From Patescibacteria group bacterium (lineage in GTDB: Bacteria > Patescibacteriota > Minisyncoccia > Phycocordibacterales > DATDWN01), in NCBI GenBank assembly GCA_013816135.1, contig JACDEV010000005.1, positions 28,055 through 52,054 of the forward strand: a stretch of DNA of 24,000 bases. The letters are read 5' to 3'. The notes beneath the pieces were generated by a model, which had not been told where the DNA came from, made no database searches, and saw only the letters and a program-made list of their open reading frames with translations. Position 1 is the first letter of the stretch, and each line of letters opens with the position of its first letter. Shown here piece by piece: positions 5,606-13,982 of this stretch. The translations under genes were made by a program, and so were the position numbers.

Positions 5606-7546
5606 TTAAAATTCAATTTTAAACAAAGGTTTTCTTGGAAATTCGCCAAGGAAAGTTTCTTTCTCTATGTATTTTTCAGGCACATCATCAATAAATTCAG
5701 ATCTTGAGTTTACTTCCATTGTACCATATATTGTCCGGGTTTGTGCATGTGTCAAGAAGAGCTTTTTGCCTGCCCTTGTGACCGCTACATAGAAAAGTCT
5801 TCTCTCTTCTTCACTATCTTCCCCTGATTTTTTTGCTTCCCCCATCCTTCTATGAGGGAAAAGATCGTTCTCTAATCCGCAGATGAACACAGTATGGAAT
5901 TCTAGCCCCTTTGATGAGTGCACCGTCATCAATTTCACTCCATTTTTGCCTCCATCCAATGCATCTTGATCAGAGGCTAAAGCGGTATCTGTCAGGAATT
6001 TTTCTATTCCCTCTTCTCCAGGATAAATATCATATCCTATTGCAAGTGTTACAAGTTCCATTATATTTTCCAATCGATCAGTGTCTTCTTCAAATCCGGT
6101 TTTGTACATATTCTCCATTCCGGAAGTTCGGATTATGTGTCGCAACGCATCGGATGGCTTTTCTTGAAGCAGTACATCTTTGAAATCCGAAAGCATCTTC
6201 CGGAAACTTGAGATTTTTATTTTTGTCGCTTCCGGAAGAACATCTTCTAGCCCTTGGATGATTTTTTGAAGAGTTACTTTACCTATTCCTCTTGGTGGTA
6301 TGTTGATGATCCTGGAAAAATCCGTAACATTTTCTGGATTGAGACTAGCTTTGATGAAGCTAACAGCATCTTTTATTTCCTTCCTTTCGAAGAATTTCGT
6401 GCCAAGCATTTGGTAAGCTACTCCATATGACATGAAAGCGTCTTCTAGTACTCTGGATTGGAAATTGGCGCGATATAAGACCGCCATATCCTCTGTGGAC
6501 TGCCCTTTTTCTATTAATTCCTTGCATTTCAAGGCGATGAAATGCGCCTCATCTATCTCGTTTCTAGCCTCAAATACCCCTATTTTTTCTCCCTCTTTGT
6601 TCTCAGTAAATAATTTTTTCGGAATCCTGAAATTGTTCTGTTCGATTATTTTATTTGCAGCACCCAAGATGTTTTTTGTTGAACGATAGTTCTGTTCCAA
6701 AAAAAAAGTCGATACTTCAGGATATGTCCTTTCAAAATGAAGCATGTTCTTTATTTCTGCTCCTCGCCAACTGTATATGTTCTGGTCAGTGTCCCCAACC
6801 ACGCAAATATTGCGATTTTTGCCAGCCAGTAACTCTACTATCTGGTTCTGGACTTTGTTTGTATCCTGATATTCATCGACATGGATATAGAGAAATCGAT
6901 CCTGATACTTTTTCAATACTTCAGGGTACTTCTCTAAAAGTTTCAAACTTTTCAACAATAGATCATCGAAATCAAGTGCATGTTCCTTTTTCAATACTTC
7001 TTCATATCTGGTCCAGGCTTTCTTCACAAGTTCTGAGGTGAAATCATAACTTCCTCTTTCGCCATATTCGGAAAGACTAACCCCTCTACCCTTTTCGTTG
7101 GATATAATGTGCCTGATTTTATCCAGATATTCCTTTGGATCGACTCCTACATATGACAGAGCATCTTTCAAGGCCTTTTTTGAGTCAGCGGTGTCAAAAA
7201 TATTGAAGTGTCTCGGCAGATTTAAAAGCGGAGCATTCTCTTTTATTATAAAAACGCCGAGTGAGTGGAAGGTGCTCATGAACGGCATGCTCCTTCGGAG
7301 ATGGACAAGATTCGGATCTTCTTCAATAAGATTTCTTACTCTTTCTCTCATTTCCTTCGCTGCTTTGTTGGTAAAAGTTATAGCCAGGATTCTTTCAGGA
7401 GAAACTCCGCTAGCAATAATGTGCAAAATGCGATGTGTAATGGTTTTGGTTTTGCCAGCACCTGCTCCAGCCACAATAAGTACTGGTCCTTCAACAGCTA
7501 AAACAGCTTTTCTTTGTTCAATATTTAGAGATTCAAGATAATTCAT
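5606..7546 (-). CDS. UvrD/PcrA/Rep-family ATP-dependent DNA helicase
   Basis: 646 aa. Walker A AGAGAGKTKTITHRI, helicase motifs DEYQDTN, QNYRST, VLYR, and TVHSSKGLEF near the C-terminus. Confidence 0.93.
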   Translation of the reverse strand: MNYLESLNIEQRKAVLAVEGPVLIVAGAGAGKTKTITHRILHIIASGVSPERILAITFTNKAAKEMRERVRNLIEEDPNLVHLRRSMPFMSTFHSLGVFIIKENAPLLNLPRHFNIFDTADSKKALKDALSYVGVDPKEYLDKIRHIISNEKGRGVSLSEYGERGSYDFTSELVKKAWTRYEEVLKKEHALDFDDLLLKSLKLLEKYPEVLKKYQDRFLYIHVDEYQDTNKVQNQIVELLAGKNRNICVVGDTDQNIYSWRGAEIKNMLHFERTYPEVSTFFLEQNYRSTKNILGAANKIIEQNNFRIPKKLFTENKEGEKIGVFEARNEIDEAHFIALKCKELIEKGQSTEDMAVLYRANFQSRVLEDAFMSYGVAYQMLGTKFFERKEIKDAVSFIKASLNPENVTDFSRIINIPPRGIGKVTLQKIIQGLEDVLPEATKIKISSFRKMLSDFKDVLLQEKPSDALRHIIRTSGMENMYKTGFEEDTDRLENIMELVTLAIGYDIYPGEEGIEKFLTDTALASDQDALDGGKNGVKLMTVHSSKGLEFHTVFICGLENDLFPHRRMGEAKKSGEDSEEERRLFYVAVTRAGKKLFLTHAQTRTIYGTMEVNSRSEFIDDVPEKYIEKETFLGEFPRKPLFKIEF

Positions 7547-8947: not shown

Positions 8948-9114
8948 GCACTTCTTGTTTTATAAATAAAACAATGTCGCTCACGTCGGATTTCATCCAG
9001 ATTTTGAAAGTTCATAATCCTCCGAGCTGTTTTAAAAATATATATAGTGATTGTTTTTGGATTTTGTTATATGTATTATTAAACTATAATTTACTTATCA
9101 TTAATATAAAAAAT

Positions 9115-9387
9115 ATGTTTGGATTTGGAAAATCAAGTCGGGAGGGTTTCGATAATCTTGAAGCAAAAAAATTAGAAGCAGAAAGTGCTATGGTAGATGC
9201 CCAGAAAATTATTGATTCACCTGTAGATGGTAGTGAGGCTAGATTAGACGCTGATATTAAAGCTCATCATGATAAAGCAGATGCTATAGATAAAAAAGTT
9301 ACCGCAGAAGTAAAAATGGAACAACATATTGAAAGAGCTCATGGAGAAGCATTGAAAGAAAATGAATCTGGCATTCATAACTTTTAG
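9115..9387 (+). CDS. Small charged, probably helical hypothetical protein (90 aa)
   Basis: I prefer the internal ATG at 9115 of track ORF 8974..9387. A TATAAT box at 9085-9090 lies inside the longer ORF, and the upstream 47 codons are low-complexity AT-rich sequence. A strong terminator follows at 9401-9428. Confidence 0.5.
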   Translation: MFGFGKSSREGFDNLEAKKLEAESAMVDAQKIIDSPVDGSEARLDADIKAHHDKADAIDKKVTAEVKMEQHIERAHGEALKENESGIHNF

Positions 9388-9400
9388 TTAATTTATAAAT

Positions 9401-9428
9401 AAAACGTCGGATATCCGACGTTTTTTTT
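9401..9428. terminator. Bidirectional rho-independent terminator; left boundary of the GC-rich island
   Basis: AAAACGTCGG-ATAT-CCGACGTTTTTTTT: a 7-bp GC-rich stem extended by A/T pairs, with a T8 run on plus and TTTTATTTAT on minus. Confidence 0.8.
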
Positions 9429-9430
9429 GG

Positions 9431-9586
9431 TTAACTATTTCTTAACCATTCCATATATGCGCGCCTGTCGCCAGTGCGATCTGCTTCTGCTCGCATAATC
9501 TCTTCTTTTGCCTTCCAGTCATCATAGTTTTTCAGAGCACTTTGAAGTTTTACAAGAGAATAGATAATAGTTTTTTGTTCTTCCAC
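9431..9586 (-). CDS. Possible 51-aa helical peptide (GTG start)
   Basis: Manual translation gives VEEQKTIIYSLVKLQSALKNYDDWKAKEEIMRAEADRTGDRRAYMEWLRNS. GAGGTGA lies just upstream, but spacing to the GTG is only ~4 nt. It is below the ORF-track size cutoff. Confidence 0.3.
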   Translation of the reverse strand: MEEQKTIIYSLVKLQSALKNYDDWKAKEEIMRAEADRTGDRRAYMEWLRNS

Positions 9587-9630
9587 TTATCACCTCATTA
9601 GAAAACTATGGTTACGAAATACCTCTGATC

Positions 9631-9807
9631 TTAGTCTCTCCGTCTAACTTCGCGAATTGCTAGGACGCTAGAAACCAAGCACAACATGGCAAAACCCAGA
9701 GCTGTGAGGACAAGTCTTGAGTCGGTTTGCTGAAATGCAGTTACAAAAAAAACTGCGGTTCCAACAACTTCCAACACCCCGATTATTCCGAAAACAATCT
9801 TTCTCAT
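9631..9807 (-). CDS. 58-aa small membrane peptide with two predicted TM helices
   Basis: Manual translation gives MRKIVFGIIGVLEVVGTAVFFVTAFQQTDSRLVLTALGFAMLCLVSSVLAIREVRRRD. A GGAGA Shine-Dalgarno lies ~6 nt upstream of the ATG. It is not in the ORF track because it is under 60 aa. Confidence 0.55.
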   Translation of the reverse strand: MRKIVFGIIGVLEVVGTAVFFVTAFQQTDSRLVLTALGFAMLCLVSSVLAIREVRRRD

Positions 9808-9821
9808 GACACTCTCCTGTT

Positions 9822-9903
9822 AAAGAACATTCCCTTAAAACCAAACTATCACAGATAATTTATTTTTAAGGAAGTTCGAGAAAAAGAAAACTTCCTCTCG
9901 AAC
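9822..9903 (-). promoter_or_regulatory. Promoter/5'UTR module B (duplicate of module A at 10721-10807)
   Basis: Minus strand reads: hairpin GTTCGAGA..TCTCGAAC, then TTCCTT(-35)-N17-GATAGT(-10), then TTTTAAGGGAATGTTCTTT, then SD and ATG. It contains the inverted pair CCTTAAAA...TTTTAAGG and aligns block by block with module A. Confidence 0.45.
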
Positions 9904-10313
9904 AATTTGTAAAAAAGAACGCGTGCAGTCTGAGTCTTTGGCACAGCAAGTGTTGGCCACCTCCTTCAGAAGAAATTTAGCCCTCGCCTAGCGACTCAAT
10001 GACTCCTTTTTCTGGAGCCGTGCGCTTTTGCCTAAGCGCTTATGGTCCTCGAGCTTCTGCACAAGCTTGGACACGGTTGGTTGGGAAGAGTACCGCGCCA
10101 TTTTGTCGAGATGCACAGTGGAGTAATTACTCCAGCGCCATCTAGGGCGTTATTCTTCCCATCAAAGCTTTTAAATAATTTTAAAAATTTTGATGGAAAC
10201 CGAATCTCGTAAGATTCGGAACTTTTGACCGCCAAAGTTAAAGGAGTGTTCGCATTAAAGCCCAACACAGAAGGCCTCGGGTCGTCGGGCAAGGAACCGA
10301 CTCACCGGATAGA

Positions 10314-10703
10314 TCACTTCACATTGGTTGTCGCGCATTGTGCGACCGGCGGTTTGAACGCCTTGACCTTTGTGGGGAGCTTGGGAAGCTCCGCGGTAAC
10401 CGGTTTTATGACCGCGACTTTCTCGGCTTTTTGCTGCCGGTACTTGTCTATCAACTTATCTGCTTCCTCGGGAGAGGAAACGTCTTGTGACAAGTTGATA
10501 TCACGTTCTGTGTTCAGACTCGACATGCAGGCACCTTCACTTACTTTGCCGACATTCATGACGAGCTTGTAGCCGTTGTCCTGCTTCCAGAGACTGTAAA
10601 CAATCTCATTATCGCAGTAGTGCCGGACTGGCGATTTGAATTCTGCGCAGCCGACGAGAGTCACGAGCGAGAACAGCACGACGATACGCATGATCATCTT
10701 CAT
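10314..10703 (-). CDS. Putative lipoprotein (129 aa from ATG at 10703)
   Basis: N-terminus MKMIMRIVVLFSLVTLVGC has a clear lipobox (LVGC). G+C is visibly higher than in flanking host genes. The track ORF starts 2 codons earlier at a GTG (10709). Confidence 0.7.
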   Translation of the reverse strand: MKMIMRIVVLFSLVTLVGCAEFKSPVRHYCDNEIVYSLWKQDNGYKLVMNVGKVSEGACMSSLNTERDINLSQDVSSPEEADKLIDKYRQQKAEKVAVIKPVTAELPKLPTKVKAFKPPVAQCATTNVK

Positions 10704-10720
10704 AAGCACACAAGCTCCAA

Positions 10721-10807
10721 AAGAACATTAGGGAATCATTTCCCTTAAAAATAAATTATCGAAATAATTTCCTTTTAAGGAATCCCGAGGAAATTGATTC
10801 CTCAGGG
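10721..10807 (-). promoter_or_regulatory. Promoter/5'UTR module A (duplicate of module B)
   Basis: Minus strand reads: imperfect hairpin CCCTGAGGAA..TTCCTCGGG, then TTCCTT-N16-GATAAT, then TTTTTAAGGGAAATGATTCCCTAATGTTCTTT. It has the same CCTTAAAA...TTTAAGG inverted pair and the AATGTTCTTT leader as module B. Confidence 0.45.
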
Positions 10808-11130
10808 CAGAGTTTTTTCACAAACACTCTCCGAAGTTATGGCAGTCTGGGGGCTCAACCCCAGTTGAGACGCGTCTGGTAATGAGCCAGTCCGCATTCT
10901 CTTTGAGTGAGGCATCTGCAGTGTTGCGAGCATCGGCTCGCATAAGCCCTTTGGGCTCCACATCAAATGCTATGTCGTTTGAGCACGACATCTCCCCTCT
11001 CACCCCGGTACAAGGGGTTCAATTTGAAAGTGGAAATGGCGTCTGCAACACCTACCCCTTTCTCTCGAATTACTAAATTAATAATGCGAGAGAAAGGGAC
11101 AGGTTACTTCGGTTTATTTTAAAAGAACTA

Positions 11131-11188
11131 GATTCTGTTTCGTCCTTTTGGACTCATCAGGCAAAGCTTCACTTTGCGACAGTACCAG
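11131..11188 (-). ncRNA. Hammerhead ribozyme, type III topology (HHR1); predicted cleavage after GUC, between plus coords 11178 and 11177
   Basis: Minus strand: cugguacuGUC|GCAAAG-UGAAG-CUUUGC-CUGAUGA-GUCC-AAAA-GGAC-GAAA-CAGaauc. All invariant core nucleotides (C3-A9, G12-A14, A15.1:U16.1) are present. Stem I is 6 bp, stem II is 4 bp with G10.1:C11.1, and the open stem III is ACAG/CUGU plus 3 further pairs after an A.A mismatch. Confidence 0.85.
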
Positions 11189-12379
11189 TTTTGCGTTCTG
11201 GTAAACGTTCGGGAACTTCCCAAAAAAGAACAAAAGTGGAACAGCGTAAGGTCAAAAACTGTTCCGAGAGTAGATTGCGTTCAGGTGACCCCGAACTCCA
11301 ACCACCGATTTGCGATCGGTTCTACCCTTTTAACCACAACCTATGTCCTTTTGAGACGACTGGTTGCCCGCCTTATCCACCAAGAGCTTATTGCGATTCA
11401 TGCTGGCCGGCACTTCACGCATGAGAAGGGCTTATTCTTCTCTCCCTCTGACGAGGTCCGGCTCTACGCTCTTGGTTTTCCCCCAACTTTGCCTTCGCAA
11501 ATTTTTCAATTTGCGACTGCACTGTGCCGGTAATGGGAGAGGCATTTGCTAAGAACCTTGCGAGTCCTCAGCTGAGCCACCGACTTTCCAACCTTTCAGG
11601 TGTTTGGCGCACTATCTGGAGTTAACCAGATAACTTTTCGGAGTGTCACCTCCTAAAGCCTGTTCGGTCGTCTTACTCTCATAGCATCGCCAAACGCTAT
11701 GATCATACCTGGCTGAAAGTCCTCGGGTTTGGAAAACCCTACTTTCAACCAAACATGTGGAGATTTGGATTCTATCTTTCGATAGTACCCCGCCTCGGTC
11801 GTGCTAACCGAGACAAATCGTCTATTGCTAGACTATCAGGCTCTCCATGGCCACGTTATTGAATCCGAATGTCAGATTCAATAACGTGGCCACAGAATGT
11901 TTTCAAAAATATCCTTTTTCGCTCTTTTGAGCTCATCAGCAGAGATACACATCTCTGAAAAGAGTCCTTAAGGGGGACCAGGCCAATCGATATGGCTATT
12001 CTGGGTTGCCAACCAATGTGTTTTACTAGAACTAATTTATTCTAGTAACTTCCAAGATTATTCTAAGTGGATTGATATAGTGAGACACATTTCTATGCTT
12101 TTTCTTCCGTGGCTAGGTAAGAAAAGTTGGGTAAATCAAGTGGTTTGGCTAACCACTAACCCAAAGCTCCATTGAGCCATGAAATTGTCCACACTTTCTG
12201 CTATATCATTTTCCCAAAGAATTTAATCAAGGAAGCACATTCTCGAGTTTGCAATCTTAATAAGATTGGCTCGAGCTCTAAAGTATTTAGTTAATGCACA
12301 ACCATTCTCCTTCTATATTTCCAATGAACATTTATCTGTTTCGTCCTTTTGGACTCATCAGGCAAAGCACACACTTTGC
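11178..12379 (-). ncRNA. 1202-nt hairpin-dense non-coding RNA delimited by the HHR3 and HHR1 cleavage sites (subdivided 422 + 780 nt by HHR2)
   Basis: No minus-strand ORF of 60 aa or more. Many perfect local stems. GNRA tetraloops occur only when read on the minus strand (CGCAAAUU-GAAA-AAUUUGCG at 11496-11515; CUAUC-GAAA-GAUAG at 11772-11785). G+C is elevated relative to the host genes. Confidence 0.5.
11911..11966 (-). ncRNA. Hammerhead ribozyme, type III topology, divergent copy (HHR2); predicted cleavage between 11958 and 11957
   Basis: Minus strand: ggacucUUU|CAGAGAU-GUGU-AUCUCUG-CUGAUGA-GCUC-AAAA-GAGC-GAAA-AAGGau. The core is intact. Stem I and stem II sequences differ from HHR1/3 but keep pairing (compensatory changes). 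The cleavage triplet would be UUU, which is allowed as NUH but typically weak. Confidence 0.7.
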
Positions 12380-12386
12380 AACAAGG
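12333..12386 (-). ncRNA. Hammerhead ribozyme, type III topology (HHR3); predicted cleavage after GUU, between 12380 and 12379
   Basis: Minus strand: ccuuGUU|GCAAAG-UGUGUG-CUUUGC-CUGAUGA-GUCC-AAAA-GGAC-GAAA-CAGaua. It is nearly identical to HHR1 except for loop 1 and H17 (U instead of C). Confidence 0.8.
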
Positions 12387-12743
12387 CCGTTAAGGTGGCC
12401 AGCCTGATTTTTTGTGACTCGGGAATCAACCGAGTATGCATTTTCTGTTCCCAGGACTGCGATAACATCCCGGCGGACTTATTGCTAAGCTTTTGGCTTA
12501 ACAATTTCCAAGACAGATCCCGTGGGAAGGAGATAGTGCAGAATTTCGCACCCATCCTCCATTCCACACGCAATCAGCTTGGAACCGCGGAGAGCCTTTA
12601 ATAGGTCTCTCATTTTATTTAGGAACTTTCGCTCCCACCTCGGGGCCCTGCGCAACTAATTTGTGCGAACTGGGCTCACCAAGTGGAAGCAAAAGTTATG
12701 TTGTCAAAAGTCTTTGACTCCTTCCCTAATCGCTTCTGGGGAG

Positions 12744-12772
12744 AGTATATACTAACTCACTTATTTTGTCAA
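12744..12772 (-). promoter_or_regulatory. Sigma70-type promoter TTGACA-N17-TATACT driving the hammerhead-containing transcript
   Basis: Minus strand TTGACA is plus 12767-12772 and TATACT is plus 12744-12749, followed by CTCCCCAGAAG. This gives a leader of about 360 nt before the HHR3 cleavage site. Confidence 0.5.
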
Positions 12773-12918
12773 CTACTTTTGACATTTATTATCATTATAA
12801 ATATAAAATAGCCCTAAATAAGGCTATATAATCATAATTTTAATATAATTAAGTCTGACTAAATATTAATAAAATTGACTATTATTTTTATTATTATATA
12901 AATTAGTTTTAATTCTGC

Positions 12919-12946
12919 TTGACATATATAACAGTAGGTGTATACT
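12919..12946 (+). promoter_or_regulatory. Sigma70-type promoter TTGACA-N16-TATACT, divergent twin of the 12744-12772 promoter
   Basis: TTGACA at 12919-12924 and TATACT at 12941-12946, followed by CTCCCACAGAGG. The -10 box and initial transcribed sequence nearly match the minus-strand promoter (TATACTCTCCC[C/A]CAGA). Confidence 0.55.
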
Positions 12947-12952
12947 CTCCCA

Positions 12953-13242
12953 CAGAGGTTCCCAATATGCATGACGAGTGACGGCTTCTCCTGCCTGGGC
13001 AAAAGCAATGTGCTTATGTTGCAGGCAGGAGATGAGTCGACCACAAATCATGATTATATAAACTGCGTAGACGTCAAAAGAGAGAAAAGCAATGCGAAGC
13101 AAGTGCAGTTCACGAGGAGAAAGACAATGCAGGATGATTAACGGCTAGATTCGCTCATAAACAAGCAAAAAGCTTGTTAAGATCGGATCCATCAAAGGCT
13201 CGTCTGGAATTTATTCCGGACGAGCCTTCTTCTTATTTTTTT
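12953..13242 (+). ncRNA. Candidate ~290-nt small RNA (promoter-to-terminator unit), unknown class
   Basis: It is bounded by the 12919 promoter and the 13196-13242 terminator, and no plus-strand gene follows. It contains a perfect 10-bp stem CTCCTGCCTG...CAGGCAGGAG (12989-13032) and AACAAGC-AAAAA-GCTTGTT (13160-13178). A 56-aa ORF from ATG at 12971 cannot be excluded. Confidence 0.4.
13196..13242 (+). terminator. Rho-independent terminator; right boundary of the island; its T-tract overlaps the 3' end of the convergent TrmB gene
   Basis: AAGGCTCGTCTGG-AATTTATT-CCGGACGAGCCTT (13 pairs: 12 Watson-Crick plus one G.U) followed by CTTCTTATTTTTTT. Confidence 0.7.
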
Positions 13243-13982
13243 AGATTATCAAAAGCTAAGTTGAAAAGACTTTTAAGAGTTTCTGCGAAGTCTTTACTTT
13301 CAATGTAGATAGCTGAGAGTTTTTTTCCTAGAATACTAATTCTTACTTTATCTTTATATATACTCATATCAACATAAAAAGGATATTTACTCTCATCAAC
13401 CTTTAATCTCTTTGTAAGTTCAGTGTCTTCTTTTTGACCTTTTGACCAGTTATACAAAACTTTGGCTTTAATATTTTCATTTTTTCTAACCTTTCTATAT
13501 TTACCAGTTTCTACATCTTTAAATACATCATCAAGTAAATCTTTGGAATATAGTATATACACAGGAGATCCATCAGGATTACTGTCATAAACATCCTCAT
13601 TAATACTGATTATTCCCTCTTTTCCAGAGTAATATTTTACTAGAGGCTTTTCACCCGATTCTCTTTGCAAACTTTTTATTTGAGGAATAATATCTTCAGC
13701 AAATCTATTTTTTAGTTCTCCCAATGCCATTTCTTTCCTTTCAATATAAGTTCTAAGCATCTCCGGGGATTCAGCCATATATTTGGTTTTTTTGTTCTCC
13801 TCAACTTCACTCACTAGACCTTTTTTTGCTAAGGAATCCAATATGGTGTATACAGTTGGGCGTTTTATTTTAGTTTTTTGAGAAAGTTCAACAACTGAGG
13901 CTTGATCTACCTTAATTAATTGTAAGTAAATCGCTGCTTCTTTATCACTTAACCCGGCATCTTCTAGGTATTTTTCAATCAT
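13233..13982 (-). CDS. TrmB-family transcriptional regulator
   Basis: 249 aa. The N-terminal winged-HTH GLSDKEAAIYLQLIKVDQASVVELSQKTKIKRPTVYTILDSLAKKGLV is typical of the TrmB family. Confidence 0.8.
   Translation of the reverse strand: MIEKYLEDAGLSDKEAAIYLQLIKVDQASVVELSQKTKIKRPTVYTILDSLAKKGLVSEVEENKKTKYMAESPEMLRTYIERKEMALGELKNRFAEDIIPQIKSLQRESGEKPLVKYYSGKEGIISINEDVYDSNPDGSPVYILYSKDLLDDVFKDVETGKYRKVRKNENIKAKVLYNWSKGQKEDTELTKRLKVDESKYPFYVDMSIYKDKVRISILGKKLSAIYIESKDFAETLKSLFNLAFDNLKK

Follow-up and report, generated by a model that had tools for sequence, protein, structure and literature searches.

The 24,000-nucleotide (nt) stretch of DNA analysed here, referred to as the window, belongs to an assembly of a Patescibacteria group bacterium (GCA_013816135.1, contig JACDEV010000005.1, positions 28,055 to 52,054). 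On its minus strand, three hammerhead ribozymes (HHRs) stand at the borders of a series of modules, among them module C, a conserved and structured RNA of about 650 nt. The hammerheads are named HHR-a, HHR-b and HHR-c in the order of transcription and correspond to HHR3, HHR2 and HHR1, respectively, of the initial annotation, which regarded the segment between the two outer hammerheads as a DNA-encoded unit of a retrozyme- or viroid-like circular RNA. The array is composed of the following features (a slash marks the cut site):

12388-12333, minus strand: HHR-a, type III, cut GUU/G at 12380/12379
12332-11967, minus strand: module B, a non-coding spacer of 366 nt, present in this genome only
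11966-11911, minus strand: HHR-b, type III, cut UUU/C at 11958/11957
11910-11187, minus strand: module C, conserved structured RNA of ~650 nt (core 11898-11236)
11186-11132, minus strand: HHR-c, type III, cut GUC/G at 11178/11177
11131-10720, minus strand: module D, a structured leader of ~410 nt that contains a 27-bp hairpin (11104-11050)

Hammerhead ribozymes of the locus and their family

All three cut sites are positions read from the sequence. In the minus-strand reading each hammerhead has the core CUGAUGAG...CGAAA, in accordance with the catalytic positions C3-U4-G5-A6-N7-G8-A9 and G12-A13-A14 with A15.1 next, a closed stem I of 6-7 pairs and a closed stem II of 4 pairs (GUCC/GCUC-AAAA-GGAC/GAGC), while stem III is short and open, and the assignment to type III is based on this combination. 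The NUH rule for cut sites, in which H is not G, holds for GUU, UUU and GUC. HHR-b is unlike HHR-a and HHR-c in stems I, II and III. With the Rfam model RF00008, HHR-c scores 42.7 bits (E=4e-7) and HHR-b 24.4 bits, both below the gathering score of 48.5, and HHR-a matches only the type-I Rfam model (22 bits); we attribute the sub-threshold RF00008 scores to the divergence of this hammerhead clade from the Rfam seed. Scores of 66.7, 70.7 and 61.1 bits were obtained for HHR-a, HHR-b and HHR-c with a family model, R1, based on 135 relatives and trained on a set that included the three window hammerheads. R1 detected no hammerhead besides these three in a search of both window strands. Except for the Rfam score threshold, all features of a type-III hammerhead that can be tested in silico are present. 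In addition, a small hairpin lies directly 5' of stem III of each hammerhead (12400-12385, 11979-11963 and 11199-11183), with the sequence GGCC...GGCC at HHR-a and CCAG...CUGG at HHR-c.

HHR-a and HHR-c form a direct repeat of 53 nt with 85% identity and an exact core of 33 nt, and no other long direct repeat was found in 9000-13600. The outer cut sites, 12380/12379 and 11178/11177, bound a piece of 1202 nt, in agreement with the initial description of two near-identical hammerheads one such unit apart, with no repeat beyond the ribozymes. The 5'-OH and 2',3'-cyclic phosphate ends predicted for the released RNA would follow from known hammerhead chemistry. Release of the 1202-nt RNA itself holds in part: the outer sites do delimit it, but HHR-b lies inside, and cutting there would split it into pieces of 422 nt (HHR-a and module B) and 780 nt (HHR-b and module C). 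In an independent assembly of the same sample (Logan contigs of SRR11719869; L002 and L004) the contigs break inside HHR-a and HHR-c. These breaks are explained by the 33-nt exact repeat, which exceeds the assembler k-mer, and are not evidence for a circle.

To characterize the family, the pattern CTGATGAGYYCAAAAGRRCGAAA, which fixed the core and stem II and left the cut-site positions free, was run against one genome per species and matched at least 120 loci. About three quarters of the titles among the matches listed are Saccharibacteria, Paceibacteria or other Patescibacteria. The core CUGAUGAG...CGAAA is invariant in 135 family members, as fixed by the search pattern. Position 17 before the cut, on which the search placed no constraint, is C in 87, U in 32, A in 15 and G in 1 of them, i.e. 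C, U or A in 134/135, and the equally unconstrained position 16.1 is U in 129/135. The alignment of the 135 copies has 16 base pairs; of its cells, 95.5% are paired and 726 show compensatory change, and both shuffled and slid controls stay far below the observed pairing. Loop I is mostly GUGU and loop II AAAA. Usually, a small hairpin with a YUUAAAA loop is situated 5' of the family hammerheads, and cleavage would leave it as the 3' end of the upstream RNA. Such an upstream hairpin, often with a CUCUWUAAAA-type loop, was also noted in L013, L035, L085, L090, L103 and others. Judged from these searches, the family of this type-III variant appears to be large, very abundant in Patescibacteria and unreported in the searchable literature, in which we found no publication linking hammerheads to the candidate phyla radiation, Patescibacteria, Saccharibacteria or Parcubacteria.

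A second motif of the family, GTTCTTT, is located 5-10 nt 3' of 28 of 143 hammerheads (0.6 expected), often within GTTCTTTGAAAA or GTTCTTTTAAAATAAA. In the window it occurs at 11128-11122, 10726-10720 and 9828-9822, and as the variant GTTCATT at 12329-12323; it directly precedes the Shine-Dalgarno sites of two open reading frames (ORFs) described below, those of the lipoprotein and of a 58-amino-acid (aa) protein. L129 and L133 each have a GTTCTTT that is not accompanied by a hammerhead. That it acts as a U-rich pause or processing signal is a guess.

Two to four hammerheads on the same strand are common across family loci, and the pieces between them often encode small helix-turn-helix proteins, membrane proteins or lipoproteins. 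As a side observation, a Saccharibacteria locus (L005, 2142-7629) with two hammerheads carries six repeats of ~84 nt, TATCAGGATCTCGAAC..TTCGAGGTTCTGTAGAAA..TTGTTCTTTGAAAA, ending in the GTTCTTTGAAAA tail. Likeness between hammerheads of one locus is general: variable parts at least 85% identical were observed in 33% of within-locus pairs vs 0.8% of pairs between loci, and the repeats shared within a locus measure just 50-107 nt, with unrelated payloads. For this reason near-identity, taken initially as the mark of a unit, does not mark a replicating unit. The likeness of HHR-a and HHR-c looks like the outcome of local duplication or gene conversion, common in these arrays.

These pairs bear on the question of a circular RNA, in which the C-bearing piece (1202 nt if HHR-b is slow, 780 nt otherwise) would be ligated by an RtcB-type ligase or by hammerhead reversal. 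The predicted ends are substrates of RtcB and tRNA ligases (PMC11722881), the pairs flanking module C are matched within the genome in the window and in the related loci L142 and L138, and in many loci segments of 0.3-4 kb lie between matched hammerheads in direct repeat. The stem III strand of HHR-c does pair with the body of HHR-a, so that the hammerhead proposed to form across the junction could formally be rebuilt, but CUGUC/GAAACAG is simply the family consensus and the match is therefore no signature of ligation. Nor is the match of stem I a requirement of ligation, since the rebuilt hammerhead takes stem I wholly from the upstream copy. The 1202-nt piece contains HHR-b, and the 780-nt piece cannot rebuild a hammerhead, as the strands that HHR-b and HHR-c would contribute to stem III do not pair; the same is true of the pair in L136, another locus with module C. 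Furthermore, module C is free of ribozymes in five loci, so that its function does not need a circle, and no circles were found from bacterial hammerhead clusters by Perreault et al. (PMC3088659). We consider a circle unlikely, and circularisation is unlikely to be required.

Module C and the modular composition of related loci

Module C is carried by 13 loci. The first match was L014 (E=1e-22; on the same contig as L128), a pattern of two conserved blocks retrieved further copies from metagenomes, and a route through the neighbouring TrmB-like gene added L141 and L142. The remaining homologs are L138, L129, L133, L131, L135, L125, L136 and L134 (with a near-identical copy, L137), together with a partial copy in L139. 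Comparison of the window with L014 shows compensatory changes in a long hairpin and identical single-stranded blocks. In ten module C sequences aligned by sequence only, RNAalifold identified 80 pairs in 13 helices, and 56 of these pairs are changed on both sides. Cells are paired in 89.6%, vs 70.4% after shuffling and ~40% with partners slid, and the observed counts were attained in 0/500 shuffles. The helices are distributed as follows:

11895-11879 with 11861-11845, minus strand: P1 hairpin
11842-11839 with 11303-11300, minus strand: long-range helix
11760-11757 with 11337-11334, minus strand: long-range helix
within module C, minus strand: ten helices besides these three

Nucleotide identity of module C to L138 is 78.6%, compared to 65-74% for the flanking protein genes. 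All four minus-strand pieces of the locus fold far better than shuffled sequences: z-scores are -4.6 for the 422-nt piece 12379-11958 (module B and the HHR-a body), -10.3 for the 780-nt piece 11957-11178, -8.8 for the 458-nt piece 11177-10720 (module D and the HHR-c body) and -5.8 for the remaining one. The interior between the outer hammerheads is indeed structured, in line with the initial description, and no minus-strand ORF of at least 60 aa lies wholly inside it. The statement that GNRA loops are restricted to the minus strand proved nearly right, with five GNRA-capped hairpins on the minus and one on the plus strand in the 1202 nt (8 vs 1 over 10720-12740). Modules B and C were rejected as coding sequences, because their ORFs are all short and have no start that could be used, and because the lengths of indels relative to L014 do not keep to multiples of three.

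No Rfam match at the gathering score was found in the window and 16 homologous loci. At E<=10, the 731-nt module C query retrieved only generic hairpin (microRNA-model) matches from Rfam 15 (4227 models), and searches with 4.6 kb, 0.73 kb and seven loci returned only hammerheads and chance hairpins. Module C accordingly belongs to none of the known families, nor is it flanked by ribozymes of another class. A likeness of some module C motifs to RNase P (GGAAAGUC, GGAUAAG) was set aside because no RNase P model scores at E<=10. The pattern of module C is absent from the viral contigs searched. Covariation and conservation show module C to be a large structured RNA, previously undescribed, which may represent a new RNA class. 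With ~650 nt, 13 covarying helices and long invariant single-stranded blocks, it is a candidate large bacterial RNA from the little-studied Patescibacteria. Large bacterial RNAs with a complex fold are rare, and RNase P, OLE, GOLLD, ROOL and raiA each opened a line of work.

Outside the closest relatives, L014 and L136 have hammerheads on both sides of module C and L133 on one side. Neither a hammerhead nor another Rfam ribozyme surrounds it in L129, L131, L134, L135 and L125; except for L135, these loci offered a minimum of 390 nt upstream and of 2 kb downstream for the search. Its occurrence without a flanking ribozyme in five loci indicates that module C is an independent gene, the hammerheads being an accessory of some lineages. 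In distant genomes module C resides in unrelated gene neighbourhoods, and the TrmB-like gene is the only recurring protein neighbour among the C loci compared. A same-strand ORF follows module C within ~100-250 nt in every C locus. A simple scan detected no promoter for module C in L125.

The closest relatives of the window locus are metagenome-assembled genomes of Paceibacterota, and the order of modules in the window and at the related loci is:

window: leader with small ORF, HHR-a, B, HHR-b, C, HHR-c, D
L142: leader with small ORF, HHR, C, HHR, D
L138: leader with a different ORF, HHR (core C3 changed to U), C, HHR, D mostly missing
L141: HHR, C
L143: leader, D; neither hammerhead nor C

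HHR-a is orthologous to the 5' hammerhead of L142, with which it shares stem I (GCAAAG/CUUUGC), and HHR-c is kept in L138 and L142. The flanking hammerheads are ~800 nt apart in L138 and L142, the two relatives in which both were found. Module B together with HHR-b is peculiar to the window and lacking in all three close syntenic relatives that carry module C (L138, L141 and L142), so the 1202 nt are not an evolutionary unit. On one side this insert directly abuts the 3' edge of HHR-a, on the other the sequence UUUUUGAAAA with which module C opens. Module B has no ORF with a usable start and no homolog in 140 other loci. Across the five loci, modules are gained and lost at hammerhead borders.

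Gain and loss of this kind could be expected of a mobile element, i.e. a hammerhead-bounded segment copied to new sites as a retrozyme-like or other RNA-mediated element. The indel of module B with HHR-b exactly at a hammerhead border, the presence or absence of the HHR-C-HHR block among close relatives and the unrelated neighbourhoods of module C in distant genomes are all consistent with it, but recombination between conserved ribozyme cores accounts for the indels equally well. The segment is a single copy at a syntenic site, its repeat measures 53 nt with no long terminal repeat (LTR), no reverse transcriptase is encoded in the 24 kb, no copy was found in the viral contigs or phage records searched, and in none of the 140 other loci was module B found a second time. 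The tRNA-Met primer site TGGTATCAGAGC, with up to 2 mismatches allowed, is absent from 9000-13600, and its two matches elsewhere in the window are at chance level. A mobile element is therefore very unlikely. The retrozyme- or viroid-like circular unit proposed initially was not borne out as such: the 1202 nt form no unit, module C exists without ribozymes elsewhere, and the locus is chromosomal, in single copy and behind a promoter. Support for a retrozyme- or viroid-like element is partial at best. A combined possibility, in which matched pairs circularise module C (or B and C) in vivo and modules are exchanged between loci, would turn the array into the bacterial equivalent of a retrozyme, encoded in DNA and with a new class of large structured RNA at its centre; we regard it as quite unlikely.

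Predicted transcription unit and neighbouring genes

The array is located between a promoter and a terminator in a single-copy, chromosomal and syntenic locus. The genes and signals around the modules are:

13982-13233, minus strand: TrmB/TrmBL2-like winged-helix regulator with a Pfam TrmB domain, directly upstream
12772-12744, minus strand: sigma-70-type promoter (TTGACA, 17 nt, TATACT; 11/12 consensus positions)
~12690-12620, minus strand: conserved hairpin GCUUCCACUUGG...CCGAGGUGGGAGC in the 5' untranslated region (UTR), upstream of the small ORF
12613-12485, minus strand: small ORF of 42 aa (MRDLLKALRGSKLIACGMEDGCEILHYLLPTGSVLEIVKPKA), with homologs in L129 (60% identity), L072 (55%) and P0001 (78%)
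10703-10314, minus strand: lipoprotein of 129 aa, an ORF with signal peptide and a homolog in L138
9807-9631, minus strand: small membrane protein of 58 aa (ORF)
9586-9431, minus strand: ORF of 51 aa
9401-9424: bidirectional terminator downstream of the 51-aa ORF

The promoter and a TGTCA motif upstream of it are kept in L072, L090, L138 and L143. The promoter scan revealed no further minus-strand promoter-like site from 12744 until 9593, and a lone weak terminator-like hairpin (10745-10730) was noticed within the unit. One conserved promoter, the lack of another until 9593 and the terminator at 9401-9424 place the hammerheads inside one predicted transcript of ~3.3 kb. In the window, TGTCAA at ~12784-12779, just upstream of the -35 hexamer, forms with it the palindrome TGTCAA...TTGACA.

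The 5'-UTR hairpin is conserved, with compensatory changes, in L072, L138 and L143, including loci in which the small ORF is replaced or missing. The 42-aa ORF was considered as an obligate partner of module C and rejected, because L138 has another ORF, of ~85 aa, in its place and because just one homolog of it is present in the database. Module D ends with a hairpin and GTTCTTT just 5' of the ribosome-binding site of the lipoprotein gene. It occurs in L142 and L143, is mostly missing from L138, and has its first hairpin in common with L014 and L053. A repeat element, CCTTAAAA..AAATTAT..TTTTAAGGGAA (10780-10735 and 9871-9830, minus strand), is placed ahead of the lipoprotein gene as well as of the 58-aa membrane ORF. 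The arms, each of 18 nt, are inverted copies without a mismatch and lie 871 nt from one another; the element is found once in L138 and twice in L143.

The arrangement of modules B, C and D upstream of the lipoprotein genes on one transcript, along with the same-strand ORF that follows module C in every C locus, raises the question of whether they constitute a very long cis-regulatory 5' leader of the lipoprotein operon, with hammerheads that tune mRNA stability as insulators do and with a module C that is not free-standing. The genes downstream of module C are, however, from unrelated families, and HHR-c would physically part module C from the mRNA. In addition, L143 retains module D and the downstream genes without module C, and a ~650-nt fold of 13 helices is far beyond known leaders. 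We hold such a leader to be highly improbable.

The window matches part of a chromosomal contig of 65 kb (JAITZQ010688793.1), and the protein beside the element is assigned by NCBI to a Patescibacteria group bacterium. Genes in the neighbourhood have housekeeping functions (ksgA, a uvrD-type helicase, an M23 peptidase, comM, rpsO and the CCA-adding enzyme). A blastn search with 9400-13200 gave no match among phage records, so neither the neighbours nor the searches of phage records and viral contigs place the locus in a prophage. A tRNA/tmRNA scan detected none.

The AlphaFold model of the TrmB-like protein has a mean pLDDT (predicted local distance difference test) of 89, and TrmBL2 is its best structural match (E=6e-12), with TrmB also matched. 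These are DNA-binding proteins, and the possibility of an RNA ligase or another RNA enzyme was rejected. The TrmB-like gene adjoins module C in the window, L138, L139 and L134. Among the matches listed, a homolog is situated at most 8 kb from a hammerhead in 22/120 genome-scan loci, upstream on the same strand or divergent. Arrays with a TrmB-like gene beside them are L005, L006, L013, L014, L017, L026, L027, L033, L050, L055, L060, L067, L072, L080, L081, L084-L086, L103, L109, L116 and L120, and L139 in the metagenome scan. The protein is probably a local regulator of divergent promoters, and the palindrome TGTCAA...TTGACA may be its operator.

A second promoter (TTGACA, 16 nt, TATACT; region 12919-13228) diverges from the main one on the plus strand, and its -10 and start region is an inverted copy of that of the main promoter. 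It would drive an RNA of ~280 nt ending at a bidirectional terminator (13195-13228), with a Shine-Dalgarno sequence and a mini-ORF of 3-4 codons first and GC-rich hairpins thereafter. The mini-ORF reads ATG CAT GAC GAG TGA (12967-12981) in the window, MHD* in L142 and L138, MQD* in L141 and MWD* in L143. All four of these relatives retain the plus-strand promoter together with the mini-ORF.

Proposed processing of the transcript and comparison with known systems

Three hammerheads situated between one promoter and one terminator separate the small-ORF piece, module B, module C and the lipoprotein block, as in a hammerhead cluster. We conclude that this is probably a chromosomal RNA-processing locus of a Paceibacteria-like Patescibacteria bacterium, in which hammerheads cut one transcript into separate RNAs. 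The observations behind this are covariation in the hammerhead family, conservation and structure of module C, modular presence and absence, and conservation of the promoter; we infer that the unit is transcribed and cleaved in vivo, and likewise what part the ends play. The sigma-70 promoter at 12772-12744 would drive a minus-strand transcript of ~3.3 kb containing, in this order, the structured 5' UTR with the 42-aa ORF, module B, module C, and module D with the lipoprotein gene and two small ORFs. During or after transcription, the three hammerheads at module borders would cut themselves at their NUH sites. Downstream pieces would begin with a 5'-OH and a folded ribozyme body, and upstream pieces would end in the small hairpin and a 2',3'-cyclic phosphate. 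Four separate RNAs are expected, i.e. a small-protein mRNA, B, the C RNA (~780 nt when mature, including the HHR-b body) and a lipoprotein mRNA, with folding, translation and decay uncoupled.

Several points weigh against processing of this kind. HHR-a and HHR-b have GUU and UUU as cut sites, which are less efficient. Stem III has just 4-5 bp, and in these two hammerheads minimum free energy folding does not predict it. In L138, the 5' hammerhead (6651-6706, minus strand) reads UUGAUGAG in place of CUGAUGAG, a change of core C3 to U, and may be weakly active or dead, although its 3' copy is intact; not every copy, therefore, need be active. The matched stem I of the pair that flanks module C co-varies between genomes: the window and L142 have GCAAAG, L138 has GUCYGA. 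Simple processing does not call for such a match, and its attribution here to gene conversion is tentative. The benefit of precise ends for the C RNA is conjecture.

Should the flanking hammerheads release module C, this would be a natural case of the ribozyme-RNA-ribozyme design used by engineers; a natural bacterial precedent for a ribozyme-flanked RNA was not found in the searchable literature, only engineered examples. In Patescibacteria, arrays of the family punctuate operons of small proteins and are linked to a TrmB-like regulator and to two conserved flanking motifs. The locus and its family thus offer a testable system for the role of self-cleaving ribozymes in bacterial gene expression.

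Among known systems, plant retrozymes are non-autonomous LTR retroelements with type-III hammerheads, LTRs of ~350 bp that each embed a hammerhead, and a tRNA-Met primer site and polypurine tract in the central region; they are dispersed in many copies with target-site duplications and are mobilised by a retrotransposon reverse transcriptase (PMC11722881). Similarity to them consists in two direct type-III hammerheads that bound a non-coding segment of ~1 kb, with the same 5'-OH and cyclic-phosphate ends predicted. In contrast to retrozymes, the sole direct repeat at the window locus is the 53-nt ribozyme itself, without LTRs of ~350 bp, and the locus occupies a single syntenic site in four relatives and does not belong to a multicopy family. 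No target-site duplications are evident, although these cannot be defined without repeat edges, and no polypurine tract was noted, with no separate search made for one. The host is bacterial, no reverse transcriptase is present in the window, a third hammerhead lies inside, and the payload exists free of ribozymes. Hammerheads and a structured non-coding RNA of several hundred to ~1000 nt are shared with viroid-like RNAs (Avsunviroidae, satellite RNAs) and Obelisks. Unlike viroid-like RNAs of the Avsunviroidae type, which are RNA-only replicons with ribozymes in both polarities, the element is in chromosomal DNA behind a promoter, syntenic, and has hammerheads on the minus strand only; unlike Obelisks, it has no Oblin-like ORF.

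Module C resembles GOLLD, ROOL, OLE and raiA in its size (~600-800 nt), covarying helices, invariant single-stranded blocks, GNRA loops and narrow phylogenetic range. It differs from them in matching no Rfam 15 model, in its host lineage and in being flanked by hammerheads in part of its family. Judging by GOLLD, ROOL and OLE, it may form multimers or ribonucleoproteins. Synthetic ribozyme-guide RNA-ribozyme cassettes and RiboJ insulators are comparable in that border ribozymes set the ends of RNAs and uncouple neighbours, and in that the hammerhead body stays at the 5' end of the downstream piece, but these are engineered.

The closest comparison is with the clustered bacterial hammerheads of Perreault et al. 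2011 (PMC3088659), described in Clostridium scindens, Azorhizobium caulinodans, Agrobacterium tumefaciens and prophages. These cut polycistronic RNAs in vitro, and circles were sought and none detected. Shared features are several same-strand hammerheads that flank single genes or short blocks in one transcription unit, and a long RNA expected to be cut into unit-length pieces. The window locus differs in being chromosomal among housekeeping genes and not in a prophage, the usual setting of the described clusters, in its Patescibacteria host, and in the single distinctive type-III variant represented by its copies (GUGU loop I, AAAA loop II, 5' hairpin, 3' GTTCTTT). Furthermore, one of its flanked modules is a large conserved non-coding RNA and not a gene. 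The arrangement of hammerheads is of a known kind, that of clustered bacterial hammerheads, with a large structured RNA as a payload that may itself form a new RNA class.

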